A DNA stretch of 64,000 nt from Lysobacterales bacterium (GCA_038236135.1 JBBSTF010000005.1:19227-83226), one strand, 5' to 3'. Positions 22,216 to 51,389 are shown, counted from the first letter of the stretch. Notes: generated by a model from the letters alone, not told the origin. Program-made: numbers and translations.

Positions 22216-22300
22216 GCCCAGGTGGCGGAATTGGTAGACGCACTACCTTGAGGTGGTAGCGGTGAAAGCTGTAGGGGTTCGAGTCCCCTCTTGGGCACCA
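22216..22300 (+). tRNA. tRNA-Leu (GAG), integration target
   Basis: GCCCAGGTGGCGGAATTGGTAGACGCACTACCTTGAGGTGGTAGCGGTGAAAGCTGTAGGGGTTCGAGTCCCCTCTTGGGCACCA. Confidence 0.98.
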
Positions 22301-22303
22301 ATC
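22285..22303 (+). repeat. attL core (tRNA-Leu 3' end)
   Basis: 19-bp exact match to 51278-51296. Confidence 0.95.
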
Positions 22304-22425
22304 AAAGGTTTAAGGACATCCAACGAAGTCCAAAAAACACACCAAACCCCGCGTAGCAGCGGGGTTTTTTGTGCCTTTCTTGTTCTAGGCCGTCCAGCGC
22401 CGTCTATTGCAATCCACGCATGTTC

Positions 22426-22444
22426 GGGGGCATATTTGGGGGCA
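22426..22444 (+). repeat. Putative integrase arm-binding site (left)
   Basis: GGGGGCATATTTGGGGGCA, identical to 51210-51228. Confidence 0.75.
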
Positions 22445-22484
22445 TGCGAGGCATCTGGCCCGCCTCCCTGAAGGAAATGCCCCC

Positions 22485-23717
22485 ATGCCGCTGACCGACA
22501 CCGCAGTCCGAAAGGCTGCCGCACGCACCAAACCCTACAAGCTGGCCGATGGCGGGGGCATGTATCTGGAAGTGTCGCCGACCGGCGCGAAATACTGGCG
22601 CTTGAAGTACCGGCACAGCGGCAAGGAAAAGCGGCTAGCGCTTGGCGTCTATGATCGCGTCACGCTGGCAGACGCACGGACCAAGCGTGAGGATGCCCGT
22701 CGCTTGCTGGCCAAGGGCGTCGACCCCGGCGCCGCCCGCAAGCAAGCCAAACAAGACACCGCGGAAGCCGCCGCCGTCGCGTTCGATACGTTCGAAGTCA
22801 TCGCGCGCGAATGGATGGCCCGTCAGGACGTCGCGGAAGTCACCGCCAAAAAGACAAGCTGGATTTTTGAGACGTTCCTGTTCCCCGAAATTGGCAGCCG
22901 TCCCATTGCCGACATCACGGCGCGCGAGTTGCTGGACGCGCTGCGCAAGGTGGAAGAAACCGGCAAGCTGGAAACAGCCAAGCGCGCGAAGATCAAGGCG
23001 GGACAGGTGTTCCGGTTCGCCGTGGTGGAAGGCAAGGCAGCAAGCGACCCGACGGCATCGCTACGTAACGCCTTGAAGGCTCCCAAGGGCAAGCATCACG
23101 CGGCGATCACTGATCCCGCCAAGATGGGCGCGCTGCTGCGTGCCATCGACGGTTACACCGGCCAATACGTCACGCTCTCGGCGTTGAAGCTGGCACCGCT
23201 GGTATTCGTCCGACCTGGCGAATTGCGGCAAGCTGAGTGGTCGGAGTTTGATCTCGATGATGCAATCTGGCGCATACCCGGCGTGCGCATGAAAATGAAG
23301 GCCGCGCACTTGGTGCCGCTGTCGGCGCAAGCCGTCGTGATCTTGCGCGAGCTGTCCTCACTGACTGGCGATGGCCGTTTCGTATTCCCAAGCGTGCGCA
23401 CTGCATCGCGCCCGATGAGTGAAAACACCGTGACAGCCGCATTGCGCCGGCTGGGCTACACCGGCGACGAGATGACTGGCCATGGTTTCCGAAGCATGGC
23501 TGCAACTCGATTGAATGAGATGGGCTGGAATGCAGACGCCATCGAACGCCAGCTTGCCCACGCCGAAAGCAACAAGGTCCGCGACGCCTACACGTCTGCC
23601 GCGCAGTACCTGGACGAGCGCACCCGCATGATGTCCGCATGGGCGAACTATCTGGACGCTCTCAAATTAGGTGGGAACGTAGTCTCCATCGGCCGCAGCG
23701 CAACCAAACAGCGGTAG
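22485..23717 (+). CDS. P4-family tyrosine integrase
   Basis: Arm-binding N-terminus (KPYKLADGGGMYLEV..G.KYWRLKYR), FVRPGELR, HGFRSMAAT, IERQLAH, Y in AYTSAAQY. Confidence 0.96.
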   Translation: MPLTDTAVRKAAARTKPYKLADGGGMYLEVSPTGAKYWRLKYRHSGKEKRLALGVYDRVTLADARTKREDARRLLAKGVDPGAARKQAKQDTAEAAAVAFDTFEVIAREWMARQDVAEVTAKKTSWIFETFLFPEIGSRPIADITARELLDALRKVEETGKLETAKRAKIKAGQVFRFAVVEGKAASDPTASLRNALKAPKGKHHAAITDPAKMGALLRAIDGYTGQYVTLSALKLAPLVFVRPGELRQAEWSEFDLDDAIWRIPGVRMKMKAAHLVPLSAQAVVILRELSSLTGDGRFVFPSVRTASRPMSENTVTAALRRLGYTGDEMTGHGFRSMAATRLNEMGWNADAIERQLAHAESNKVRDAYTSAAQYLDERTRMMSAWANYLDALKLGGNVVSIGRSATKQR

Positions 23718-25388: not shown

Positions 25389-25852
25389 ATGCCTTGTCGC
25401 CTCACCCAGCATCCGTCGATCCGGTAGGGCTGCTATTGCCTCGCCTGGAGCGTGTCCGCCAATACGGTAGAGGCTGGCGTGCCGACTGCCCGCTAGGTCA
25501 CTCATCGCGCGGGACATTGTCGGTAGCCGTCAGTGACGCTGGCCACGTGCTAATGACGTGCTTCGCCGGCTGCAATCTCGCCGAGATCACCGGTGCTCTC
25601 GGCATCGTCGTGGCAGACCTTTTCCCGCAGCGGAAGCAGTTTGATCTTTCGCGGGCCAACCGTGTGCAGCGTCGCGAGCTGGTCGGCATGTCGCACTGGC
25701 GCGCGGCCCTTGGAGTGCTGGCCACCGAGTCAACCGTAATAGAGGTCGCCGCATCGATGATGGAGCGGGGCGACGAGCTGGGGGTCGCCGATATCGAGCG
25801 TGTGCGCCTCGCAGCGCATCGCATCCATGCCGCCCGTGAAGTGTTGCAATGA
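25385..25852 (+). CDS. Primase zinc-binding-domain (CHC2-like) protein
   Basis: GWRADCPLGH..TLSV..VLMTCFAGC..EI..ALG...DLFP; ATGA overlap with alpA and with the DUF927 gene. Confidence 0.75.
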   Translation: MNALSPHPASVDPVGLLLPRLERVRQYGRGWRADCPLGHSSRGTLSVAVSDAGHVLMTCFAGCNLAEITGALGIVVADLFPQRKQFDLSRANRVQRRELVGMSHWRAALGVLATESTVIEVAASMMERGDELGVADIERVRLAAHRIHAAREVLQ

Positions 25853-27789
25853 ACGCACTGCCTGAACTTCCGCGCAGTATCACTGGCGTAGAGCAGCTTG
25901 CCGAAAGCAATCTAACAATGTTGGAAGGCCGCGCAGGCCGCAGACTCCGTAAACCACCTGTTCCTCGTGGGGACAGTGGGGACATGGGGGCAACCAAGCA
26001 GGACGACGGTTCTCCAGTCCCCACGACCGATGCGCAGCGCGGGGACAGTGGGAACAAAGTTGCCGGGCCGACGCCGCGATTTATCCTGATTCGCCGCCGC
26101 CGTGGATTTGTTGATGGCGTTTACTGGATCGGCGTCGCACATGACAAGGAAACGGGCGCAGACATCGAAAAGGAGCCCGTTTGGATCTGTTCCGTGCTGA
26201 ACGTCGACGCATACACACGTGACGCGCAAGGGAATGCGTGGGGTCGCCTGCTGACGTGGCAGGACGCTGACGGCCGCAAACACGTCTGGGCCATGCCGAT
26301 GGCGATGTTGGCCGGCAGTGGTGAAGAGCTGCGCGCCGAACTGCTGCGACAGGGGCTGGAAATTGCCCAACATGCTGATCGACGCAGAATGCTTGGTGAG
26401 TACCTGCAACGAGAGCGCCCCACTGTGACTGCTCGCTGCGTTGAGCGCACGGGATGGCACGGGGACGCCTTCGTGCTGCCTACAGAGACAATCGGCGACA
26501 CCGCTGCCGAGCCAATCATTTTTCAAACCGCGGCACCGGACGGCATCACGCTCGGCTGCGCCGGCACGCTGAAAGGCTGGCGCGAAAACGTTGCCGCACC
26601 ATGCGCAGGCAACTCGCGTTTGGTACTCGCCCTGTCGGTCGGCTTCGCTGGCCTGTGCATCGGCCTGATCGGAACGGAAGGTGGCGGAATCCACCTCAAG
26701 GGTGCCAGTAGCGCCGGCAAGACAACCGGGCTTGCGCTGGCCGCCTCAATGTTTGGCCTACCTTCTTTCGCACGGACTTGGCGGCAAACCGACAATGCGC
26801 TGGAGGGTGTTGCGTCCCTCCACTCCGACCTTTTGCTGATCCTGGACGAGATCGGGCAACTCGACCCAAAGCACGCGGGCGCGGTCGCATACCTGTTGGC
26901 GAACGGACAGGGTAAGGGACGGGCTCGTCGGGACGGCTCGCCCCGCGCAGCAGCCGCTTTCCGCCTGTTGTTCCTGAGTGCTGGCGAGATCGGGTTGGGC
27001 GACTTGGTAACAGCCGGCGGCGGCAAGCAGCGCGCTGGTATGGACGTTCGCGTAATTGACGTTCCCGCAGATGCAGGTACGGGTCACGGCATGTTCGACC
27101 TGGTTCCAGATGGCATTCCCGCTGGCGCATTTGCCGAACGGCTGAAAGCTGCAGCTGCAACGCACTATGGGCACGCGATGCCGGCGTTTCTGCGTGCCGT
27201 GGTTGCCGACGTTGCAGCTAAGCGCATCGACTTGCGCGAGATGCGCGATAAGCTCGCCAACGGGATGGTGGGGCCTGATGATTCCGGACAGGTTCGCCGC
27301 GTCGCTCAGCGATTCGCTTTGATTGCTGCAGCCGGCGAACTGGCGACTACGTTCGGCCTCACTGGCTGGCTACCGCAGGAGGCTGAGCGCGCTGCTCGGC
27401 GCTGCTTCGCCGACTGGCTTGGCGCCCGAGGAACGACCGGGCAAGCCGAGCCTGCCGCGATGCTGGCGCAGGTTCGAGCCTTCCTTGGTGCACATGGTGA
27501 GAGCCGCTTCAGCGCCTGGGTGCCCGACGAACGGGAACGTGTGACCATCAATCGCGCCGGCTTTCGTCGTGAGAGCACCGACGGCCCGGAATTCTTCGTC
27601 GAAACCGAGGCGTTCCGCCGCGAAGTCTGTCTAGGCTTTGACTATCAACAGGTAGCGATTGCGTTACGGGACCGCGGTGCCTTAATGCCCGAGAGCGCCA
27701 GCCGCCTGACACGCAAAGAGCGCTTGCCAGACTGCCGCAATGCCCGCGTGTACCGCATCACGCCGGCCATCTGGGAAGATGGACAATGA
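25849..27789 (+). CDS. DUF927 domain replicative helicase
   Basis: GNAWGRLLTW, RCVERTGWH, Walker A GASSAGKTT, LILDEI, YLLANGQGKGR, QVRRVAQRFALI..AGELA. Confidence 0.9.
   Translation: MNALPELPRSITGVEQLAESNLTMLEGRAGRRLRKPPVPRGDSGDMGATKQDDGSPVPTTDAQRGDSGNKVAGPTPRFILIRRRRGFVDGVYWIGVAHDKETGADIEKEPVWICSVLNVDAYTRDAQGNAWGRLLTWQDADGRKHVWAMPMAMLAGSGEELRAELLRQGLEIAQHADRRRMLGEYLQRERPTVTARCVERTGWHGDAFVLPTETIGDTAAEPIIFQTAAPDGITLGCAGTLKGWRENVAAPCAGNSRLVLALSVGFAGLCIGLIGTEGGGIHLKGASSAGKTTGLALAASMFGLPSFARTWRQTDNALEGVASLHSDLLLILDEIGQLDPKHAGAVAYLLANGQGKGRARRDGSPRAAAAFRLLFLSAGEIGLGDLVTAGGGKQRAGMDVRVIDVPADAGTGHGMFDLVPDGIPAGAFAERLKAAAATHYGHAMPAFLRAVVADVAAKRIDLREMRDKLANGMVGPDDSGQVRRVAQRFALIAAAGELATTFGLTGWLPQEAERAARRCFADWLGARGTTGQAEPAAMLAQVRAFLGAHGESRFSAWVPDERERVTINRAGFRRESTDGPEFFVETEAFRREVCLGFDYQQVAIALRDRGALMPESASRLTRKERLPDCRNARVYRITPAIWEDGQ
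25959..26056. repeat. Iteron-like GGGGAC repeat cluster 1 (inside the DUF927 gene)
   Basis: GGGGACAGTGGGGAC at 25969-25983, GGGGACAGTGGGAAC at 26041-26055, inverted GTCCCC at ~26017. Confidence 0.6.
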
Positions 27790-28335: not shown

Positions 28336-28425
28336 TGTCCCCCTTGTTCCCAGCTATCGAAAGCGGGTGGGGACAGCGGAGCGCCCCGCCACGCTTGGTT
28401 GCCCCCACTGTCCCCACCGTCCCCG
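28336..28425. repeat. Iteron-like GTCCCC repeat cluster 2 (candidate origin)
   Basis: TGTCCCC 28336, TGTTCCC 28345, inverted GGGGACAG ~28369, CCCACTGTCCCCACCGTCCCC ~28404-28424. Confidence 0.6.
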
Positions 28426-34162: not shown

Positions 34163-37100
34163 ATGACGGACCAGTTCTTTGAACGGCCCATCCTCAATTC
34201 TCCTTATGCGATCCCGTCGCAGCACTGGGAGCTGGACGGTGACGGTCAGCCGACCCAGGAGATTCTCCAGTCTCGGCGCAAAGCCGACTTCATCACTCCG
34301 ATACCCAAGCCGCGTAGGCGTACTGCCGGTCAGGCATCGCTGGTCTTCGACGAAGGCATAGGGCTTTCAACGAAGGAACAAGCCTACGCCCACACCGCCG
34401 TCATCAATGCGGTTCGTCAGGAAGTGGATGCTTGGCGTCGCCTCCCGGCAGGCCAGTGGCGGGTAACGCCGGAAACCGCTCGCCTGCTCGATCATTGGCG
34501 CAACTATCCGTTCACCGGCATCCGCCCCTTCTTCTGCCAGGTCGAAGCCGTCGAGACCGCGATCTGGCTGATTGAAGTTGCACCGCAACTGGGCAAGTCC
34601 GGTGAGCGCTTCCTTGAACATTTGGCCAAGTCGAACAACGACGCCAACCCGGAGCTGATGCGTCTGGCTCTCAAGCTGGCGACGGGCGCGGGCAAGACCA
34701 CCGTCATGGCCATGCTGATCGCTTGGCAAACCGTCAACGCCGTGCGGCATCCTAATAGCCGAAAATTCACCCGCGGCTTCCTCATCGTCGCTCCGGGTCT
34801 GACCATCAAGGATCGCCTGCGCGTCCTTCAGCCCAACGATCCCGACAGCTACTACGCCAGTCGCGACATCGTCCCGCGCGACATGCTCGCGGATATTGCG
34901 CGCGCCAAGATCGTCATCACCAACTATCACGCCTTCAAGCTGCGCGAATGCCTTGAGCTTTCCAAGGGCGGGCGCCGACTCCTTCAGGGTCGCGAAGGCG
35001 AAGAGCTGCAGACCCTGGAAACCGAAGGGCAGATGCTGCAACGGGTCATGCCCGAGTTGATGGGCATGAAGCACATCCTTGCCATCAACGATGAAGCCCA
35101 CCATTGCTATCGCGAGAAGCCGCTCGACGCCGACGATGAGCAAGACCTCAAGGGTGACGACAAGAAGGAAGCCGAAGAAAACAACGAAGCCGCGCGGCTT
35201 TGGATTTCTGGCCTTGAAGCGGTAAACCGCAAGCTCGGCATCTCCCGTGTCATGGACCTGTCGGCCACGCCGTTCTTCTTGAGCGGTTCCGGCTATGCCG
35301 AAGGCACCTTGTTCCCATGGACGATGAGCGATTTCTCGCTGATGGACGCCATAGAGTGCGGCATCGTCAAGCTGCCTCGCGTTCCGATCGCCGACAACGA
35401 TCCCAGTCGCGCCGACGAAATGCCAAAGTACCGCGAGCTTTGGAAACACATCGGCAAGAAGATGCCGAAGAAGGGGCGTGGGAAGGCCAGCCAACTCGAT
35501 CCACTCAGTATCCCCGGTTTGCTGCAGACCGCGCTCGACGCTCTGTACGGCCATTACGCGAAAACGTTCGAGCTATGGGAGAAGGCCGGCATCAAGGTGC
35601 CGCCGTGCTTCATCGTGGTGTGCAACAACACATCCACGTCCAAGCTGGTTTACGACTTCATCTCCGGCTTTCATCGCCAGAACGAGGACGGCAGCAGCCA
35701 GTTGGAAAACGGCCGCCTCGAACTGTTCCGCAACTTTGACGAACACGGCAATCCGCTGGCGCGTCCCAACACTCTGCTCATCGACAGCGAGCAATTGGAA
35801 TCCGGCGATGCGCTGGACAGTAATTTCCGCGCCATGGCCGACGACGAGATTGAGCGATTTCGCCGCGAGATCATCAAACGCACCAACGACCCCCAGCAGG
35901 CCGAGAACATTTCCGATCAGGAGCTGCTGCGCGAGGTGATGAACACGGTCGGCAAGCATGGCCGGCTCGGTGAATCGATTCGCTGCGTCGTTTCCGTATC
36001 AATGCTGACCGAAGGCTGGGACGCGAACACCGTCACCCATGTACTGGGTGTCCGCGCGTTTGGCACGCAGTTGCTGTGCGAGCAGGTTATCGGCCGCGCA
36101 TTGCGCCGGCAGTCCTACGAACTCAACGAAGAAGGCCTGTTCGACGTCGAGTACGCCGACGTGCTGGGCATTCCGTTCGACTTCACTGCCAAGCCGGTCG
36201 TGGCCGCGCCGCAAAAGCCGCGCGAGACTGTACAAGTGAAAGCCGTTCGTCCTGTGCGCGACGCGCTGGAAATCACCTTCCCGCGTGTGCAGGGCTATCG
36301 CGTCGAACTCCCGGAGGAACGGCTCACAGCGGAATTCAACGACGATTCCATCCTGGTGCTGACGCCTGATCTCGTCGGCCCGTCCGAAACCCGCAATGCC
36401 GGCATCATTGGTGAGAGCGCCGAGCTCACGTTGCAGCACCTAGGCGACATGCGCCCGTCATCAGTCGTTTTCCACCTAACCAAGCGGCTGATCGAAACCA
36501 AGTGGCGCGATCCGGGTGAACAACCCAAGCTGCACCTGTTCGGCCAGCTCAAGCGCATCGCCAAGGAATGGCTGGATACCTGCCTGCAATGCAAGGGCGG
36601 CACCTATCCGGCGCAATTGCTGTATCAGGAGCTGACCGACATCGCCTGCGAGCGCATCACCGCTGGCATCACCCGATCGCTGCTAGGCAAGCGCCCGGTG
36701 AAGGCCGTTCTTGATCCGTACAATCCGACCGGTTCTACCACAAACGTCAATTTCAACACTTCGCGCGAAGACCGCTGGGAAACGCTGGGACCGCCACCAA
36801 AATGCCACGTCAATTGGATCATCCTCGATAGCGGCTGGGAAGGTGAATTCTGCCGCGTCGCAGAAGCGCATCCCAAAGTGCTCGCGTACGTGAAGAACCA
36901 CAGTCTTGGGCTGGAAGTGCCGTATCGCTTCGGGTCCGTCGCGCGCCGCTACTTTCCCGACTTCATCGTTCGCATCGACGACGGCTACGGCCCCGATGAT
37001 CCGCTCAACCTGATCGTCGAGATCAAGGGCTATCGCCGCGAAGACGCCAAGGAAAAGAAGTCGACGATGGATACCTACTGGATACCCGGCGTCAACCATC

Positions 37101-37240
37101 TCGGCAGCCACGGTCGCTGGGCGTTCGTCGAGTTCGGCGACCTTTACGAAATGCAGGACGACTTCGCCAAAAAGGTCCAGGCCGAGTTCGACAAGATGGT
37201 TTGCGAAGCATCCACCGCCGAAAAGGAAGTTACCGCATGA
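34163..37240 (+). CDS. Type III restriction endonuclease Res subunit
   Basis: PFFCQVEA, KLATGAGKT, INDEAHHCY, DLSATPF, SMLTEGWDA, EQVIGRALRR, C-terminal PDFIV..VEIKG nuclease. Confidence 0.93.
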   Translation: MTDQFFERPILNSPYAIPSQHWELDGDGQPTQEILQSRRKADFITPIPKPRRRTAGQASLVFDEGIGLSTKEQAYAHTAVINAVRQEVDAWRRLPAGQWRVTPETARLLDHWRNYPFTGIRPFFCQVEAVETAIWLIEVAPQLGKSGERFLEHLAKSNNDANPELMRLALKLATGAGKTTVMAMLIAWQTVNAVRHPNSRKFTRGFLIVAPGLTIKDRLRVLQPNDPDSYYASRDIVPRDMLADIARAKIVITNYHAFKLRECLELSKGGRRLLQGREGEELQTLETEGQMLQRVMPELMGMKHILAINDEAHHCYREKPLDADDEQDLKGDDKKEAEENNEAARLWISGLEAVNRKLGISRVMDLSATPFFLSGSGYAEGTLFPWTMSDFSLMDAIECGIVKLPRVPIADNDPSRADEMPKYRELWKHIGKKMPKKGRGKASQLDPLSIPGLLQTALDALYGHYAKTFELWEKAGIKVPPCFIVVCNNTSTSKLVYDFISGFHRQNEDGSSQLENGRLELFRNFDEHGNPLARPNTLLIDSEQLESGDALDSNFRAMADDEIERFRREIIKRTNDPQQAENISDQELLREVMNTVGKHGRLGESIRCVVSVSMLTEGWDANTVTHVLGVRAFGTQLLCEQVIGRALRRQSYELNEEGLFDVEYADVLGIPFDFTAKPVVAAPQKPRETVQVKAVRPVRDALEITFPRVQGYRVELPEERLTAEFNDDSILVLTPDLVGPSETRNAGIIGESAELTLQHLGDMRPSSVVFHLTKRLIETKWRDPGEQPKLHLFGQLKRIAKEWLDTCLQCKGGTYPAQLLYQELTDIACERITAGITRSLLGKRPVKAVLDPYNPTGSTTNVNFNTSREDRWETLGPPPKCHVNWIILDSGWEGEFCRVAEAHPKVLAYVKNHSLGLEVPYRFGSVARRYFPDFIVRIDDGYGPDDPLNLIVEIKGYRREDAKEKKSTMDTYWIPGVNHLGSHGRWAFVEFGDLYEMQDDFAKKVQAEFDKMVCEASTAEKEVTA

Positions 37241-37390
37241 AAACGGAACGGATCCAGTCCTTCACTAGCACCTTTGCAGCCCACGCCGTTTTCGATCCTT
37301 TTGTTGACGTTAACAAAACCATCGGGATGCCTAAGGGCGTTCGTGGCTTTACGGACCATTTTCCCGGCGTCAGGAAAATGGTCGCTAAGA
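37237..37390 (+). pseudogene. Internally deleted dinD-like remnant
   Basis: MKTERIQSFTSTFAAHA joined directly to DPFVDVNKTIGMPKG and DHFPGVRKMV, which resemble separated DinD segments. ATGA overlap with res. Confidence 0.6.
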
Positions 37391-37480
37391 TCCGAAAAAC
37401 CGTTGATGAATCATGCGTTTGCAACGCAATTGCGTTGAAACTAGAAGCCACGGCGTCGAGCACCAACATTAGCGACACTA

Positions 37481-37509
37481 TTGAAACGGCACTCAACCCG
37501 CGCTACTGT
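37481..37509 (+). promoter_or_regulatory. Sigma70 promoter upstream of the structured RNA and NYN gene
   Basis: TTGAAA (37481-37486), 17-nt spacer, TACTGT (37504-37509). The -10 lies in the palindrome TACTG-TTTG-CAGTA (37504-37517). Confidence 0.7.
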
Positions 37510-37511
37510 TT

Positions 37512-37590
37512 GCAGTACATCCGCCCCTTGGCAGTACGCCCGCTCGATCATCCTGAGCGCTGGCCGACCCCTCGGGGCTTTCTTTTTTCT
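37512..37590 (+). ncRNA. Candidate structured RNA/leader ending in a terminator-like U tract
   Basis: CCCC(37524-27)/GGGG(37574-77), TTGGC(37528-32)/GCCGA(37563-67), CGCTC(37541-45)/GAGCG(37555-59), then CTTTCTTTTTT. GCAGTAC is repeated at 37512 and 37531. Confidence 0.55.
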
Positions 37591-37634
37591 GGCACCACAG
37601 ATTCTTTTGCGAAGCGCTCCGCTCGGAGACTCGC

Positions 37635-38510
37635 ATGAGCCATCGCCGCATCGCCATCCTCATCGACGGCGGGTTTTTCCTGAAGCGGCTGCCTCGATTG
37701 GTCAACCCGGAGCTATGCGAAACGCCCGAAGGCATTGCAGCCTACGTTCGACATCTGTGCCGCAACCACGTCAAGCATCTCACCGGATGCAGCAACACCG
37801 ACTGGGCGCAGTACGTCTACCGCATCTTCTACTACGACGCGGTTCCCTATGACGGCAAGGCACATAACCCGATCGACAATCGCTCGATCGACTTTGGAAA
37901 ATCCGATGTCGCCGTCCAACGACTCGCATTGTTCGACTGTCTCCGCCGCCAGCGCAAAGTCGCCTTGCGTCTCGGCAAGGTAAACCGGGACCACGACTGG
38001 GCGATCAAGCCGGAACTGACGAAGCTGCTCCTGCGTAGTCGCTCGGCACTCGATGTGCTCGACCGATTGACGCCCGGCGGCGGAGAAGAAACCAAGGGCG
38101 CAAGCCAGGATGCCATGTCAATGCAACTTTCGGCGGACGAGCTGCGCAGCCTTCGGGAGTTTCGCGCCATTTGGCAGCAGCTGGACCGTTCCTCCGTACA
38201 GCTGGGCCTTCGTCAAAAAGGCGTCGACATGCGAATTGGTGTCGACATCGCGTCACTCGCACTCAAGAAACAGGCCGACACGCTGATCTTGGTAGCGGGT
38301 GACAGCGATTTCGTACCGGCGGCCAAGCTGGCGCGCCGGGAAGGCATCGATTTCATCCTCGATCCACTATGGCAACACATCAACGCCGACCTGTTCGAGC
38401 ACATCGATGGCCTGCATTCGGGTATCCCCAAGCGTGCCGAACAACGTGCCGAACAACGTGCCGCCACCGCAGGCAATGGCCACCTCGCCGCCCAGATAAA
38501 GACGGAATAA
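37635..38510 (+). CDS. NYN (LabA/DUF88, PIN-fold) ribonuclease
   Basis: AILIDGGFF, YRIFYYDA, QKGVDMRIGVDI, LVAGDSDFVPAAKLARREG; acidic catalytic residues intact; GGAGA RBS. Confidence 0.92.
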   Translation: MSHRRIAILIDGGFFLKRLPRLVNPELCETPEGIAAYVRHLCRNHVKHLTGCSNTDWAQYVYRIFYYDAVPYDGKAHNPIDNRSIDFGKSDVAVQRLALFDCLRRQRKVALRLGKVNRDHDWAIKPELTKLLLRSRSALDVLDRLTPGGGEETKGASQDAMSMQLSADELRSLREFRAIWQQLDRSSVQLGLRQKGVDMRIGVDIASLALKKQADTLILVAGDSDFVPAAKLARREGIDFILDPLWQHINADLFEHIDGLHSGIPKRAEQRAEQRAATAGNGHLAAQIKTE

Positions 38511-38514
38511 TTCA

Positions 38515-41385
38515 ATGGCCAAGAAGCCAACCACCCCCAAAACCATCGCCGCGCTCAACCATGCCGAGGCGAAGCGCAAGAACATTCCCACGGTGGAACA
38601 CCAGTCGGTGATGCAGAAGGCTGACCAGGCGCCGGTGAAGGTGGCGTATGCGCGTAGCGCGCAGGGGCTGGATGACGAGAAGCAGCAGCGCAATCGCGAC
38701 CTCGACCCGCAACTGGTCTGGCGCGGCAAGGACCAGCAGGACTGGTCTGACCTGGTTGTCAACGCGCCGCCGCTCTACATCCAGGAAAAGGTGAAGCCCA
38801 AGTTCCTGATCGACGACCTGCTTCGACAGTCGAAGAAGCACCCGTCTACGGGTTCGGCGAAAGAAGACGCGGCAGGCTACAACCAACCTGACATGTTCGG
38901 CGACTTCAACGGCCTGCCTGAAGGTGCCGACAAAACCGAGTTCTACCAGCACGAGGGCCACTGGCAGAACCGCATGATCCTGGGTGATTCACTACAGGTG
39001 ATGGCCAGCCTGGCCGAGCGCGAAGGCCTGCGCGGGCAGGTGCAATGCATTTACTTCGATCCGCCCTACGGCATCAAATTCAACTCCAACTTCCAGTGGT
39101 CCACCACCAGCCGTGACGTGAAGGACGGCAACGCCGACCACATCACCCGCGAGCCGGAACAGGTCAAGGCGTTCCGCGACACCTGGCGCGACGGCATCCA
39201 TTCCTACCTGACCTACCTGCGCGATCGCTTGACCGTGGCACGCGACCTGTTGACCGAGTCCGGCTCGATATTTGTGCAGATTGGCGATGAGAACGTGCAC
39301 CGGGTGCGGGCGGTTTTGGACGAGGTATTTGGTGATGCGAATTTTGCTGCACAAATTGCTTTCATTAAGACTGCTGCTGTCAATAGTCCTCAAGCTAGAA
39401 CGAATGTAATTGGCGATACCTTCGACTACGTTCTTTGGTATGCAAAAGACCTATCAAGGGCAAAATATCGGCAACCTCTTCGGTCAAAAGTGCTCGGGGG
39501 TAACAGCGAATACAAGAGGATTGAGCTTGCGAATGGTAGCCGGCGTCCTTTGTCGGCGAGGGAGGTGGGTGGCGGAGAGCAGGAGGCCGATTCTAACGTG
39601 CGCTTTTACCGGCAAGACAATATTGTCTCCACCGGATTTTCGGAATCGCTGTCGGTCCCATTTCAAGCTTTCGGAAATTCCTATCGCCCAAACGCTAGTT
39701 CTCATTGGAAGACGACGATTCGCGGCATGGAACGCTTACGTCGTGCCTCCCGCCTTGAACCGCGAGGCAAACAACTTTCGTACGTGCGATTTTTTCATGA
39801 TTTCGCTGTCACGCCGATCGGCAACTCTTGGGACGATGTGGTTCTTAGCAGTCGCGCCGAGGACAAAGTCTATGTAGTTCAGACCAGCTCGAAAGTCGTC
39901 CAGCGCTGTATTTTGATGGCCACCGATCCCGGCGATCTCGTGCTCGACCCGACCTGCGGCTCCGGCACTACCGCCTACGTGGCAGAACAATGGGGCCGCC
40001 GCTGGATCACCCTCGACACGTCACGCGTAGCACTCGCCTTGGCCCGCGCACGCATCATGGGCGCGCGCTATCCGTACTACCTGCTCGCCGACTCGGCTGA
40101 AGGCCAGCGCAAGGAAGCCGAAGTCACCCGCAGCGTTCCCTCGTCGAAGGCTACCTACGGCAACATCGCCCACGGGTTCGTCTACGAGCGTGTGCCGCAC
40201 ATTACGCTGAAGTCGATCGCCAACAACACCGAGATCGACGTGATTTGGGACAAGTTCCAGCAGACGCTGGAGCCGTTGCGCGAGCAGATGAATAGTGCAC
40301 TCGGCAAGACGTGGGAAGAGTGGGAAATTCCCCGAGAGGCCGATGCCAAGTGGCCGGGGGAAGCTACTCGACTGCACGCCGACTGGTGGCAGCAGCGCAT
40401 CGCGCGGCAGAAAGAAATCGACGCTTCCATCGCCGCCAAAGCCGATTCCGAATACCTCTACGACAAACCCTACGACGACAAAAAGAAGGTTCGCGTCGCC
40501 GGCCCGTTCACGGTTGAAAGCCTTTCGCCGCATCGCGTGCTGGGCGTCGACGAGAACGACGAACTGATCGATGGGGTGGGCGAAGACAAGGCCGGCTATT
40601 CCGACGAACGCGATTTCGTGCAGATGATCCTGGCCACGCTGAAGGTGTCGGGCGTACAGCAGGCGCACAAGGAAGACCGCATCGAGTTCACCGCGCTCAC
40701 ACCGTGGCCGGGCGATCTGGTCTGCGCCGAAGGGCGATATCTCGAAGGCGACAAGGAACGCCACGCCGCTATCTTCATCGGCCCCGAGTTCGGCACTGTC
40801 TCCCGCGTCGACCTGGTAGCCGCCGCGCGCGAGGCCGGCGATGCCGACTTCGACGTGCTGATCACCTGCGCCTTCAACTACGACGCCATGTCATCTGAGT
40901 TCGACAAGCTCGGCCGCATCCCGGTGCTTAAGTCGCGCATGAACGCCGACCTGCACATGGCCGAAGACTTGAAGAACACCGGCAAGGGCAACCTGTTCGT
41001 GATCTTCGGGGAACCCGACATTGACATCCTCGACGCCGGCCCCGACGGCTACAGCGGGCAGGTTCGCGTGAAGGTCAACGGCGTCGACGTGTTCCACCCC
41101 AACACCGGCGAAGTACGCAGCGACGGTGCCGACGGGATCGCCTGCTGGTTCATCGACACTGACTACAACGAAGAATCGTTCTTCGTCCGCCACGCCTACT
41201 TCCTCGGCGCCAACGACCCGTACAAGGCACTCAAGACCACCCTGAAGGCCGAGATCAACGAAGAAGCCTGGGCCACCCTAAACAGCGACACCTCCCGCCC
41301 CTTCGACAAACCCACCAGCGGCCGCATCGCCGTCAAGGTGATCAACCACCTCGGCGACGAGGTGATGAAGGTGTTCCGCATTTAG
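38515..41385 (+). CDS. Type III R-M modification methyltransferase Mod
   Basis: YFDPPYG, VLDPTCGSGTT (beta-class order); lower-GC target-recognition segment at ~39330-39900. Confidence 0.93.
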   Translation: MAKKPTTPKTIAALNHAEAKRKNIPTVEHQSVMQKADQAPVKVAYARSAQGLDDEKQQRNRDLDPQLVWRGKDQQDWSDLVVNAPPLYIQEKVKPKFLIDDLLRQSKKHPSTGSAKEDAAGYNQPDMFGDFNGLPEGADKTEFYQHEGHWQNRMILGDSLQVMASLAEREGLRGQVQCIYFDPPYGIKFNSNFQWSTTSRDVKDGNADHITREPEQVKAFRDTWRDGIHSYLTYLRDRLTVARDLLTESGSIFVQIGDENVHRVRAVLDEVFGDANFAAQIAFIKTAAVNSPQARTNVIGDTFDYVLWYAKDLSRAKYRQPLRSKVLGGNSEYKRIELANGSRRPLSAREVGGGEQEADSNVRFYRQDNIVSTGFSESLSVPFQAFGNSYRPNASSHWKTTIRGMERLRRASRLEPRGKQLSYVRFFHDFAVTPIGNSWDDVVLSSRAEDKVYVVQTSSKVVQRCILMATDPGDLVLDPTCGSGTTAYVAEQWGRRWITLDTSRVALALARARIMGARYPYYLLADSAEGQRKEAEVTRSVPSSKATYGNIAHGFVYERVPHITLKSIANNTEIDVIWDKFQQTLEPLREQMNSALGKTWEEWEIPREADAKWPGEATRLHADWWQQRIARQKEIDASIAAKADSEYLYDKPYDDKKKVRVAGPFTVESLSPHRVLGVDENDELIDGVGEDKAGYSDERDFVQMILATLKVSGVQQAHKEDRIEFTALTPWPGDLVCAEGRYLEGDKERHAAIFIGPEFGTVSRVDLVAAAREAGDADFDVLITCAFNYDAMSSEFDKLGRIPVLKSRMNADLHMAEDLKNTGKGNLFVIFGEPDIDILDAGPDGYSGQVRVKVNGVDVFHPNTGEVRSDGADGIACWFIDTDYNEESFFVRHAYFLGANDPYKALKTTLKAEINEEAWATLNSDTSRPFDKPTSGRIAVKVINHLGDEVMKVFRI
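41341..41378 (+). repeat. mod 3'-end segment, copy 1
   Basis: ATCAACCACCTCGGCGACGAGGTGATGAAGGTGTTCCG; 37/38 identical to 46548-46585. Confidence 0.95.
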
Positions 41386-46514: not shown

Positions 46515-46544
46515 CAGCACAGCAGGGGCTCGTTTGGAGTTGAA

Positions 46545-46592
46545 GTCATCAACCACCTCGGCAACGAGGTGATGAAGGTGTTCCGAGTTTGA
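46545..46592 (+). pseudogene. 3' remnant of a second mod gene
   Basis: Encodes VINHLGNEVMKVFRV* versus VINHLGDEVMKVFRI* of mod. Its TGA overlaps the ATG of the next gene (TGATG). Confidence 0.9.
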
Positions 46593-48285: not shown

Positions 48286-50364
48286 ATGGAGTTCCGCATT
48301 GCCGACACTTTCACCGACAGCTTGGTAAGGCTGACCGGCGACGAGCAGAAGTCGGTGAAGACCACGGCGTTCGACCTGCAGATCAATCCTGCGAACCCAG
48401 GCATGCAGTTGCACAAGCTGGATCGAGCCAAAGACCAGAACTTCTGGTCAGTGCGGGTAAGCCGTGATATCCGCCTGATCGTGCACAAGACTGCGGCCAG
48501 CCTTTTGCTCTGTTACGTCGATCACCATGACGACGCGTACGCCTGGGCCGAGCGTCGGAAGCTGGAAACCCACCCGAAAACCGGCGCTGCGCAGTTGGTG
48601 GAGATTCGGGAGCGCGTAGAGGAAATCGCAATTCCGGTCTATGTGCAGGCCACGCTACCGGGTCTTGAGAAGCCGTTGCTGTTCACCGACTACAGCAATG
48701 ACCAGTTGCTGGGTTATGGGGTGCCGGTCGAATGGTTGAACGACGTCAAGGCAGCCAATGAAGACAGTCTGCTGGAGATCGCCGAGCACCTTCCTGCCGA
48801 GGCTGCCGAGGCGCTGTTGGAACTGGCTACGGGTGGAACGCCTGCGGTAACCGTCGCAGCGCCAAAGGGTGTCGACCCGTTCGAGCATCCCGATGCGCAG
48901 CGCCGCTTCCGCACGATGACCGATGTCGAGGAATTGCAACGCGCGCTGGAATTTCCGTGGGAGAAGTGGACGATCTTCCTGCACCCGGCGCAGCGACAGT
49001 GGGTAGAGCGCGACTACAGCGGACCAGCTCGCGTTTCGGGTTCCGCCGGCACCGGAAAGACTATCGTCGCGCTGCATCGCGCCGTGCACCTCGCAAAGAG
49101 CAACCCGGATGCTCGCGTGTTGCTAAGCACGTTTTCCAGGAACTTGGCGAACGCCCTGCGGACCAAATTGTTTCGGCTGGTTTCGAACCAGCCCACGCTG
49201 GCCGAACGCATCGATGTCGACACGATGGATGCCGTTGGCGTGCGACTCTACGAAAGGCAGTTCGGGAAACCGCAGATCGCGTCCCGCGACGAGATTGCAA
49301 CGCTGCTGAATCACGCGGCCGCAAATGTGGACGGGTTGAAGTTCAGTCCCGGCTTCCTGCTAGCCGAATGGCAGGAGGTAGTCGATCCGTGGCAGATAGA
49401 TAGTTGGGAGGAGTATCGCGATGTTCGCCGCCTCGGCCGCAAGACGCGCCTGCCTGAAGCCCAGCGTGCCTTGTTGTGGCAGGTGTTCGATACGGTGCGC
49501 GAGGCGCTACGAGCCAAAGGCAAGACCACCGTGGCGGCAATATTCACCAAACTCTGCGGAGCGATGCGCGAGAGAAAGCGGCCGCCGTACGATTTCGTAA
49601 TAGTCGACGAGGCGCAGGACATTGGTGTCGCTCAGTTGCGCTTCCTGTCCGCGCTGGGTGGAAGCGAGTCCAACGCCCTGTTTTTTGCGGGTGACTTGGG
49701 TCAGCGCATCTTCGAGCAACCATTTTCGTGGAAGTCGCAAGGCGTCGACATACGAGGTCGCTCGCGCACGCTGCACATCAACTACCGCACCTCGCATCAG
49801 ATTCGAGCGCAGGCAGATCGCCTGCTGGACCCGGAGGTTTCTGACGTTGACGGCAATGTTGAGACTCGCGCTGGCACGGTCTCGGTATTCAACGGTGAGC
49901 CACCCGTGATACGCAACTTCGCGACCCCCGAGTTGGAGTCTCAGGCCGTCGGAAGCTGGCTAGCCAAGTTGATGGAAGCGGGTATCCCCCCAAGTGAAGT
50001 GGGTGTGTTCGTACGATCGGACAACGAGATTCCGCGCGCGCTTGCGGCGGTATCGACAGCCGGCTTTCCGGCCAGGGTCTTTAGCGAGCGGACATCCGGT
50101 GAAGAAATTGGTGTCTGCGTATCCACCATGCACATGGCGAAAGGCATGGAGTTCCGCGTGGTTGCCGTCATGGCCTGCGACGACGAGGTGCTGCCACTGC
50201 AAGCACGCATCGAATCGGTCACTGACGAGTCCGAACTTGCCGAGGTGTATGCAACGGAGCGGCACCTGCTTTACGTGGCCTGCACCCGCGCCCGCGATCA
50301 CCTACACATTTCAGCCGTGGCACCAGCTTCGGAATTTCTTGACGACTTGGTCGCGACACGTTGA
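48286..50364 (+). CDS. SF1 (UvrD-like) helicase with N-terminal RelE/ParE-like domain
   Basis: N-terminal LHKL..FWSVRVSRDIRLIV; GSAGTGKT, IVDEAQD, GDLGQRI, NYRT, AKGMEF, LYVACTRAR. Confidence 0.88.
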   Translation: MEFRIADTFTDSLVRLTGDEQKSVKTTAFDLQINPANPGMQLHKLDRAKDQNFWSVRVSRDIRLIVHKTAASLLLCYVDHHDDAYAWAERRKLETHPKTGAAQLVEIRERVEEIAIPVYVQATLPGLEKPLLFTDYSNDQLLGYGVPVEWLNDVKAANEDSLLEIAEHLPAEAAEALLELATGGTPAVTVAAPKGVDPFEHPDAQRRFRTMTDVEELQRALEFPWEKWTIFLHPAQRQWVERDYSGPARVSGSAGTGKTIVALHRAVHLAKSNPDARVLLSTFSRNLANALRTKLFRLVSNQPTLAERIDVDTMDAVGVRLYERQFGKPQIASRDEIATLLNHAAANVDGLKFSPGFLLAEWQEVVDPWQIDSWEEYRDVRRLGRKTRLPEAQRALLWQVFDTVREALRAKGKTTVAAIFTKLCGAMRERKRPPYDFVIVDEAQDIGVAQLRFLSALGGSESNALFFAGDLGQRIFEQPFSWKSQGVDIRGRSRTLHINYRTSHQIRAQADRLLDPEVSDVDGNVETRAGTVSVFNGEPPVIRNFATPELESQAVGSWLAKLMEAGIPPSEVGVFVRSDNEIPRALAAVSTAGFPARVFSERTSGEEIGVCVSTMHMAKGMEFRVVAVMACDDEVLPLQARIESVTDESELAEVYATERHLLYVACTRARDHLHISAVAPASEFLDDLVATR

Positions 50365-50404
50365 TGTGGCAAAACCAACATAGAACGATGGCTTGGGTTT
50401 CGAA

Positions 50405-50749
50405 CTAGAACAAATCCTGTCTCTCGTTCTCGCGCGAGACAAAGGCGGCTCCCATGTTCAGGCGGAATGTGCCGATGCTCAGGCGCCCGTCTACCATTTC
50501 GATCGTGATCGGCTTTGTCCGAGGAAATGTCGCGAGTACTTTCGTAAAGATATTGCGGGGAACGACACAGGCGCCGGCGATCCCGACTTGGGCCGGAACA
50601 AAAGCGCTACTCTGGTTCGTCTCAAACTTGACCCCGTTAGCCGACGCTTTCATGCGCAGGTTGATATCCCTGCGCAGTCCGCTTGGGTGCTTTCGTTCGA
50701 TGGCCCGTACCGCCTTCAGTAGTGACGGCACGTCGCTGGAAAATTTCAT
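50405..50749 (-). CDS. Single-domain protein resembling domain I of the beta sliding clamp
   Basis: MKF...LLKAV..I and GACVVPRNIFTKVLATFPRTKPITIEMVDGRLSI parallel E. coli DnaN MKF...LLKPL..V and GATTVPARKFFDICRGLPEGAEIAVQLEGERMLV. Ends in RQDLF. Confidence 0.65.
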   Translation of the reverse strand: MKFSSDVPSLLKAVRAIERKHPSGLRRDINLRMKASANGVKFETNQSSAFVPAQVGIAGACVVPRNIFTKVLATFPRTKPITIEMVDGRLSIGTFRLNMGAAFVSRENERQDLF

Positions 50750-50886
50750 GTGTTCCAAGCCTTCGTTGAACTGACTGAGTCGTCCGGCAAGATGCCCGAC
50801 GACATCTACCTCGTACGCTGCAGAACTGCAAAGTCAGTTTGTTCCCGCCTGTTTCTGAAGTCCATTGGATTCGCAGCCGAGCGGAC

Positions 50887-50974
50887 TGTTCCCATGTCCC
50901 CGGAGATCGGATGCGCGTGGGGGCGGATGTACGGGCCAGCGCCATTGACGTTCCCCACCGTCCCCAGTGTCCCC
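50887..50974. repeat. Iteron-like GTCCCC repeat cluster 3 near attR
   Basis: TGTTCCCATGTCCCC (50887-50901) and GTTCCCCACCGTCCCCAGTGTCCCC (50950-50974). Confidence 0.6.
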
Positions 50975-51209
50975 GCTGAAACTTGTACGACATTTCCTCG
51001 GGTGGAGCCTGGACCAGCGTTCCGCTGTGCGAGTCACCAGTTAGAGCCGACTGTGGGTACTGACTCTATGCTTCATAGATGACCGCGGGCTTGGATGGGG
51101 TAGGCGCAACGGCACTCGTCATCGTATTCTCAGACTTGGATCGACAGAGCGAGAGCGACACCTATCGTCATCTGTCCACACCTACCCGCGTATCAAGCGC
51201 GCACCTCGT

Positions 51210-51228
51210 GGGGGCATATTTGGGGGCA
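51210..51228 (+). repeat. Putative integrase arm-binding site (right)
   Basis: GGGGGCATATTTGGGGGCA, identical to 22426-22444. Confidence 0.75.
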
Positions 51229-51277
51229 CATTCTTGGTATCGCCTCCGCAAACGGCTAAATCGTTGACGATTCGTTG

Positions 51278-51296
51278 CCCCTCTTGGGCACCAATC
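51278..51296 (+). repeat. attR core
   Basis: CCCCTCTTGGGCACCAATC, a duplicate of the tRNA-Leu 3' end. Confidence 0.95.
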
Positions 51297-51335: not shown

Positions 51336-51366
51336 AAAAAACCCCGCTACTTGCGGGGTTTTTTTT
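51336..51366. terminator. Bidirectional terminator (probably the original tRNA-Leu terminator)
   Basis: A-run, CCCCGC-TACTT-GCGGGG, then T-run. Confidence 0.8.
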
Positions 51367-51389
51367 GGCGAAGGTTTTGGCAGTTTCGA

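Follow-up and report, generated by a model that had tools for sequence, protein, structure and literature searches.

The analysed stretch of DNA (64,000 nucleotides from a Lysobacterales bacterium, further called the window) carries at the very end of a mobile defence island a small gene encoding a 114-aa protein which, judging by profile alignments and a confident structure model, is a single clamp domain homologous specifically to domain I of DnaN, the bacterial beta clamp. The family to which it belongs is rare and uncharacterised; it comprises about 50 representative sequences, none of them a three-domain clamp, and recurs by R-M genes and in the cargo of mobile elements. The fold is firmly identified, while the association with R-M loci is new and rests on few loci. 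A conserved single-domain clamp derivative in such defence/R-M loci was undescribed in the libraries and literature searched, and its function is tentatively interpreted here as that of an accessory or adaptor protein which associates with DNA and serves restriction-type defence.

The gene and the fold of its product

The following features of the gene are used below:

50405-50749, minus strand: focal CDS, 114-aa stand-alone DnaN-domain-I-like protein (ORF, translation, dN/dS, AF2, Foldseek, hhalign)
50408-50452, minus strand: codons for residues 100-114 (GAAFVSRENERQDLF), a predicted disordered tail with SREN and QDLF (AF2 pLDDT, tail alignment)

The gene starts with ATG at 50747-50749 and terminates with the stop codon at 50405-50407 on the minus strand (114 codons plus the stop), in full agreement with the preliminary description. 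The product (MKFSSDVPSLLKAVRAIERKHPSGLRRDINLRMKASANGVKFETNQSSAFVPAQVGIAGACVVPRNIFTKVLATFPRTKPITIEMVDGRLSIGTFRLNMGAAFVSRENERQDLF) begins with MKFSSDVPSLLK, ends with SRENERQDLF and has a pI of 10.9 with a net charge of +9. An in-frame TTG at 50758, three codons upstream of the ATG, represents an alternative start, but the ATG at 50749 was assigned as the start codon because all homologues begin at MKF. The ORF is a real, functional gene: a comparison of three homologous genes from other metagenomes (47–62% aa identity) gave dN/dS values of 0.13–0.18 with dS near saturation and with pN far below pS, which is the signature of purifying selection; independent loci share the start and, approximately, the stop, and stand-alone lengths of 104–116 aa recurred across independent contexts.

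The AlphaFold2 (AF2) model, built on an alignment of 53 sequences, had a mean pLDDT of 87.2 and a pTM of 0.77, with only residues 109–114 falling below pLDDT 50. The predicted order of elements is E-H-E-E-E / E-E-H-E-E-E, with the first strand of the second half being split, and, taken together with the Foldseek results, it corresponds to the two beta-alpha-beta-beta-beta halves with pseudo-twofold symmetry that make up a clamp domain. In the Foldseek search against the PDB each of the top 50 matches was a bacterial beta clamp (E 2e-6 to 5e-5, TMq 0.62–0.73), and the viral library returned phage DnaN proteins, the second-best viral structural match being a single-domain protein of 123 aa (BFVD A0A6J5L0N7, TMt 0.67) annotated as 'DNA polymerase III beta chain, N-terminal'.

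On the sequence level the relationship is remote. The focal protein had no Pfam match at E ≤ 1 and no NCBIfam, PADLOC, PHROG or PDB-sequence match, and a profile search of the PDB sequences missed DnaN. The homology had therefore to be established by HH alignment and structure, since direct and profile sequence searches failed to reach DnaN. With hhalign, the family profile aligned residues 1–91 to residues 1–98 of E. coli DnaN (probability 81%); the probability rose to 90% against domain I alone and was below 1% against domains II and III. The profile of a distant subfamily aligned to DnaN 1–124, including the 'dFP' motif of the connector between domains I and II, and the distant members thus retain a remnant of this connector. 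Furthermore, PHROG 947 ('DNA polymerase processivity factor') was matched by 14 of the 53 family members (best E 1.9e-8), while PF00712 gave sub-threshold matches to three relatives, each starting from profile position 1, the best of them with 20.9 bits against a cut-off of 24.4. The match to DnaN domain I originally noticed by eye is therefore borne out by four independent lines of evidence and holds down to the level of the individual domain, and the clamp-like fold, for which a Foldseek/HH comparison with DnaN had been proposed as the check, is what was predicted.

The protein is nevertheless not a DnaN by architecture, Pfam threshold or genomic setting. It shares with DnaN domain I (PF00712) the fold and the topology of two halves, with the homology running from the common MKF N-terminus. 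While DnaN consists of three domains, the 114-aa product consists of one, with the stop of the neighbouring gene located 40 bp beyond its own stop instead of two further domains in tandem; as a consequence, it has no peptide pocket, which in DnaN lies between domains II and III. Known sliding clamps are built from chains of either three (DnaN) or two domains (PCNA, gp45), and the preliminary statement that one domain cannot form a normal ring on its own agrees with this lone domain-I-like unit. DnaN domain I is acidic, whereas the family is basic (pI about 10–11) and below the Pfam threshold; finally, the focal gene is located in mobile-element cargo and not in a dnaA-dnaN-recF locus.

Family size, architecture and charge

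A word-indexed search of 5.8 billion proteins recovered two relatives only, while 50 were obtained at E ≤ 1e-3 when 1.84 billion cluster representatives were searched exhaustively with HMMER. None of the 53 family members matched any model of PADLOC-DB v2. The tblastn searches with the focal protein and with one typical distant member produced nothing in 50,697 phage and 72,556 plasmid records, the blastn search of the focal locus against phages was likewise negative, and contigs from genomes, metagenomes and viruses yielded no relative in pattern-based scans. Although small and lacking a Pfam or PADLOC model, the family (about 50 representatives) is now definable and testable.

The stand-alone members have 104–160 aa. 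In the longer ones (166–418 aa) the query aligns to residues 1–100 and the remainder differs among the members, with no Pfam domain recognized in it except for DUF6883 in two proteins (P0055 and P0020), where it is fused to the clamp-like N-terminal domain. DUF6883 is reportedly mentioned in a paper on BECR-fold ribonuclease toxins. The model of another fused relative, P0032 (pLDDT 81.5), placed the clamp domain at residues 1–103, followed by a low-confidence linker at approximately residues 105–190 and by an unrelated alpha/beta domain; the Foldseek output for this protein was dominated by its clamp domain, with no match being assigned to the C-terminal alpha/beta domain. Since P0032 combines one clamp domain with an unrelated one and its TMq to DnaN is only 0.24, the fused members are not degenerate three-domain clamps.

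A second property common to the family is its charge. The pI of the domain exceeded 8.5 in 47 out of 49 members (median 9.75), and basic positions are conserved at K2, K12, K20, R26, R32 and K70, with such positions present on both helices, while the pI of domain I in E. coli DnaN is 5.3.

Genomic contexts of the family and the host island

Ten lineage-independent loci were read, nine of which, counting the window itself, were informative (L019 was too short); the closest subfamily is represented among the contexts by P0003, P0005 and P0008 only. The gene orders were as follows:

L004/L005 and L011: type III Res, Mod and the family gene with 3-bp spacing and two different downstream continuations
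L008/L012: family gene, HsdM_N, HsdR, HsdM (type I)
L001/L002: integrase, DnaD_N/HTH_36 Rep-like gene, family gene, and an AspBHI_N/Mrr_cat type IV enzyme 25 bp downstream
L020: Eco57I/TaqI_C methylase (type IIG), a 117-aa gene, then a fused family gene
L006/L007: small Type_ISP_C protein, then a fused family gene
L013: family gene at the end of a small-gene operon in a P4-like element with a Toprim/DUF3987 primase and HTH_17 genes
L003: Pedosphaera chromosome, no R-M neighbour
L017: family gene convergent with a Fic protein

Components of R-M systems were encoded on the same strand and within two genes of the family gene in five of the nine informative contexts, and they belonged to types I, IIG, III and IV and to a Type ISP-related fragment. 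One of the type III settings was located on an element with a TrwB coupling protein. This recurrent same-strand adjacency is a property of the family but not of the window copy, whose neighbour is a helicase. An all-against-all comparison of the neighbours found no partner conserved across the contexts; the association is therefore with a class of systems and not with one protein, so that any coupling would be generic. In total, the recurrence of the family by R-M genes and in mobile-element cargo rests on about ten contexts, which is a small sample.

Several details of these loci are worth recording separately. L008 (7983-8463) and L012 (8001-8465) represent the same chromosomal locus in two assemblies with 100% identical flanks; the family gene is split by a frameshift in the former (112-aa product) and intact in the latter (154 aa), and in both it precedes the same type I R-M genes. 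In L001 the DnaD_N/HTH_36 Rep-like gene is separated from the family gene by an array of ACTCAGGACA-like repeats (approximately positions 1290-1370), which is likely the iteron origin of a small integrative element. A conserved pairing with the helicase was considered and rejected, since homologue P0008 has a Fic protein next to it instead of a UvrD helicase.

The island that hosts the focal gene is approximately 29 kb long, extends from tRNA-Leu(GAG) to the repeat at 51271 and includes the following features:

22216-22300: tRNA-Leu(GAG)
22278-22303, plus strand: attL core, tRNA-Leu 3' end, left island boundary
22407-23717, plus strand: P4-type tyrosine integrase (Arm-DNA-bind_3, Phage_int_M, Phage_integrase)
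25849-27789, plus strand: DUF927 protein, with iteron-like cluster 1 in the 5' part
34163-41385, plus strand: type III R-M module of Res-like helicase, NYN nuclease and Mod (MTase_III, 1535 bits)
48286-50364, plus strand: UvrD/GajB-like SF1 helicase, 692 aa, convergent neighbour of the focal gene
50893-50976, minus strand: iteron-like 'repeat cluster 3', five 9-bp-phased GGGRAC repeats
51271-51296, plus strand: attR, direct repeat of the tRNA-Leu(GAG) 3' end, 23 of 26 bases identical to 22278-22303

This is a satellite-like P4-type defence island and not a prophage. A P4-type integrase and a DUF927 protein, which we take to be a putative replication primase-helicase, are combined in it with a load of defence genes, and the neighbours in the island matched PADLOC defence models. 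The effect on phage yield that had been suggested as a read-out is not directly applicable, because the element is not a phage. Apart from the type III R-M module, the island encodes a NERD/SEC-C protein, a JukA-like protein, DuOB (PDC-M45A), two DUF488 proteins and a four-gene operon ending in the GajB-like helicase. The focal gene is the last gene of the island, located 9 kb away from the type III R-M system and not adjacent to it, although relatives of the gene lie embedded in systems of this kind. It had been described as the only gene facing inward from attR, and indeed no other sizeable ORF is found on the minus strand in the island's right half. Its stop is separated from the convergent helicase stop by 40 bp, and the approximately 520 bp between its upstream side and attR contain no convincing genes. 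A consensus scan detected no minus-strand promoter-like site for the gene, and Rfam produced terminator-like matches only, all of them sub-threshold. A search for RNA runs with the gene returned none. Fragments covering the junction between the helicase and the focal gene were present in two further metagenomes, one of them being the X2 contig that covers 50299-50556.

The defence modules themselves have a number of peculiarities. The gene for the NYN-domain nuclease (37635-38510) sits between the Res-like helicase and Mod, and a GmrSD type IV enzyme follows directly after the type III module in a region of lower G+C (47–52% at 41–43 kb). The helicase at 48286-50364 has an extra N-terminal part of about 230 aa, residues 27–81 of which weakly match the HigB/RelE-like toxin family (E 0.0033, below threshold). 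Three small ORFs which overlap and have no family assignment come before it, one of them with a weak match to PDC-M32A; together with the helicase they may form an undescribed defence operon.

Possible functions

The interpretation given at the beginning, i.e., an accessory or adaptor that associates with DNA in restriction-type defence, is the best available explanation, held with a confidence just short of calling it probable. The basic helices, which line the channel in true clamps, would bind DNA. The exposed edge strands would probably self-associate or dock onto the edge of another beta-sheet, because in DnaN two such strands, unsatisfied in an isolated domain, pair with neighbouring domains. 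The clamp domain would thereby couple or regulate neighbouring or fused effectors, and in the fused form it is tethered via a disordered linker to variable C-terminal domains. The R-M/defence contexts, the basic charge, the single-domain architecture and the variable fusions are all in favor of an adaptor, while the window copy, being outside an R-M operon and convergent with a helicase, and the close relatives without R-M neighbours (Pedosphaera in L003, the Fic neighbour in L017) speak against it, as do the small number of contexts, the missing common partner gene and the lack of a PADLOC match. Besides, the iteron-like repeats found here and the iteron-bearing Rep region in L001 are equally compatible with a replication-linked role. 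Small accessory genes are known in R-M operons, such as those of the controller C proteins, and a clamp is coupled to a methyltransferase in eukaryotes (PCNA-DNMT1). The genes of the present family are likewise small and tightly spaced by Mod, HsdM or Eco57I-type methylase genes; however, their products have no helix-turn-helix and an entirely different fold, and the likeness is an analogy only. No description of a clamp-like domain in defence or R-M contexts was found in the literature searched, including comparative genomics of BREX and phosphorothioate systems. If the domain binds DNA or forms rings, it would bear on clamp evolution and might represent a new accessory layer of restriction systems, serving, for example, to tether enzymes to DNA or to sense replication.

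An inhibitor or mimic of the replisome, as initially proposed for this protein, is considered unlikely. According to this idea, the domain would cap the domain-III face of the host beta clamp or jam the clamp loader with the QDLF end docked in the clamp pocket, so that replication would be blocked or redirected for the element. The dimer interface of DnaN is formed by domain I with domain III, and the specifically domain-I-like character of the protein fits such a role; the divergence of the family from cellular DnaN beyond HMMER detection, on the other hand, argues against mimicry of a specific host interface. The strongly basic domain, compared with the acidic domain I of DnaN, also speaks against an inhibitor. 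The C-terminal RQDLF reported previously is present in the translation, within a tail predicted to be disordered (the last two blocks had AF2 pLDDT of 56 and 44). Clamp-docking motifs have five or six residues, the first being Q and the fourth and fifth hydrophobic. The consensus for clamp binding is QL[S/D]LF or QLSLF, in which Q1, L4 and F5 are critical (PMC4549789). The D-L-F-COOH of the focal tail resembles the last three positions of this motif and fits positions 3–5 (three out of five), but the motif is incomplete, with the Q shifted by one and Q1 consequently out of register. The C-termini of the homologues were ..SRENGAYGL, ..SRENETYRRPT, ..SRENDAY, ..SRGNDVE, ..RENEFY and ..GGVRSDLA: the close subfamily has S/P-R/H-E-N in common, with an aromatic residue two or three positions further on, one relative ends with a partly similar ..RSDLA, and none ends with DLF. 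The alignment of the tails shows DLF to be a lineage-specific end and not a family feature; a clamp-binding end peculiar to this single protein is conceivable but unsupported. The conservation of DLF in homologues, on which the docking proposal had been made to depend, fails because the homologues lack it. The variable C-terminal fusions and the membership in R-M operons would also be unexpected for an inhibitor, and the contexts of the family point to R-M/defence and not to the control of replication that had been suggested for the element. Inhibitors which target clamps are known, such as the Caulobacter SocB toxin and staphylococcal phage peptides; the capping of host or phage clamps by the protein, if it occurs, would amount to a new kind of replication interference by mobile elements or defence islands.

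Lower still in probability is a dominant-negative poison of phage-encoded clamps, i.e., a defence protein descended from phage DnaN that would trap the processivity factor of the incoming phage in dead-end complexes. The best sequence-level similarity of the family is to the phage PHROG 947 and not to cellular DnaN models, the gene is located in a defence island, and a single domain cannot close a ring, all of which is compatible with poisoning. The PHROG 947 processivity factors are the closest sequence-level family for 14 of the 53 members, while the focal protein had no match to them, and the members are found in R-M/defence loci and not in phage replication modules. A poison of this type would protect only against phages encoding their own DnaN, and it leaves unexplained both the tight operon linkage with R-M methylases and the variable C-terminal domains.

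It is similarly improbable that the protein acts as a replication accessory of the element, e.g., a minimal clamp or a copy-number factor working alongside the DUF927 primase-helicase at ori/crr-like sites that carry iterons. Three clusters of 9-bp-phased GGGRAC(A/G)NT repeats are present in the window (25967-26055, 28367-28417 and 50893-50976), of which the first lies inside the 5' part of the DUF927 gene and the first two in or near the DUF927 replication module; by analogy with the ori/crr of P4, they resemble iterons, or else operators for a DNA-binding protein that the element encodes. The exact GTGGGGAC occurs in six copies in the 64 kb, all within the island and all in the first two clusters, while cluster 3 is made of one-mismatch copies. 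The latter cluster, next to which the gene had correctly been placed, is 145–225 bp upstream of the start codon, and apart from it such repeats occur only in or near the DUF927 module. In addition, the homologue in L001 adjoins the ACTCAGGACA iteron array and the DnaD_N/HTH_36 Rep-like gene, and the element in L013 has a Toprim/DUF3987 primase. Against a replication accessory, many members are found in chromosomal or R-M operon contexts without replication genes, homologous loci do not share a conserved upstream region (the non-coding sequences upstream of the gene in the window and in L001 showed no conservation), and the repeats could be mere operators.

Little weight is also given to a variant in which single-domain subunits would assemble into a head-to-tail ring of six domains around DNA, acting as a sliding platform by which R-M methylases, nucleases or fused toxin domains would stay tethered to DNA or at replication forks. 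Such a mini-clamp, if it does exist, would be an extant equivalent of the single-domain protein from which DnaN and PCNA are presumed to descend, and its role a bacterial parallel to PCNA-DNMT1. Finally, a decaying dnaN fragment or a spurious ORF in GC-rich DNA, suggested by the short length, by the absence of a Pfam match and of RNA runs with the gene, and by overlapping ORFs of similar length on the other strand, is effectively refuted by the conservation pattern (the low dN/dS, the conserved start and approximate stop) together with the confident model and the absence of any space for, or remnant of, domains II and III downstream, where the neighbour's stop is 40 bp away. The probability that is left belongs to some further function.

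Three other repeats were noticed in the island. A perfect 19-nt direct repeat, GGGGGCATATTTGGGGGCA, is present inside both island ends, at 22426-22444 (in the first part of the integrase ORF and some 120 bp away from attL) and at 51210-51228 (about 45 bp from attR), and its copies are possible arm-type sites of the integrase. A 71-nt direct repeat with 77% identity connects the 3' end of Mod (41313-41383) with the region just upstream of the helicase operon (46520-46590) and may have been left as a scar when defence modules exchanged cassettes. The terminator hairpins at 22344-22373, after the tRNA-Leu at attL, and at 51338-51367, after the attR repeat, are 73% identical, and because similar hairpins are thus found at both ends, the element carries its own copy of the terminator downstream of the tRNA.
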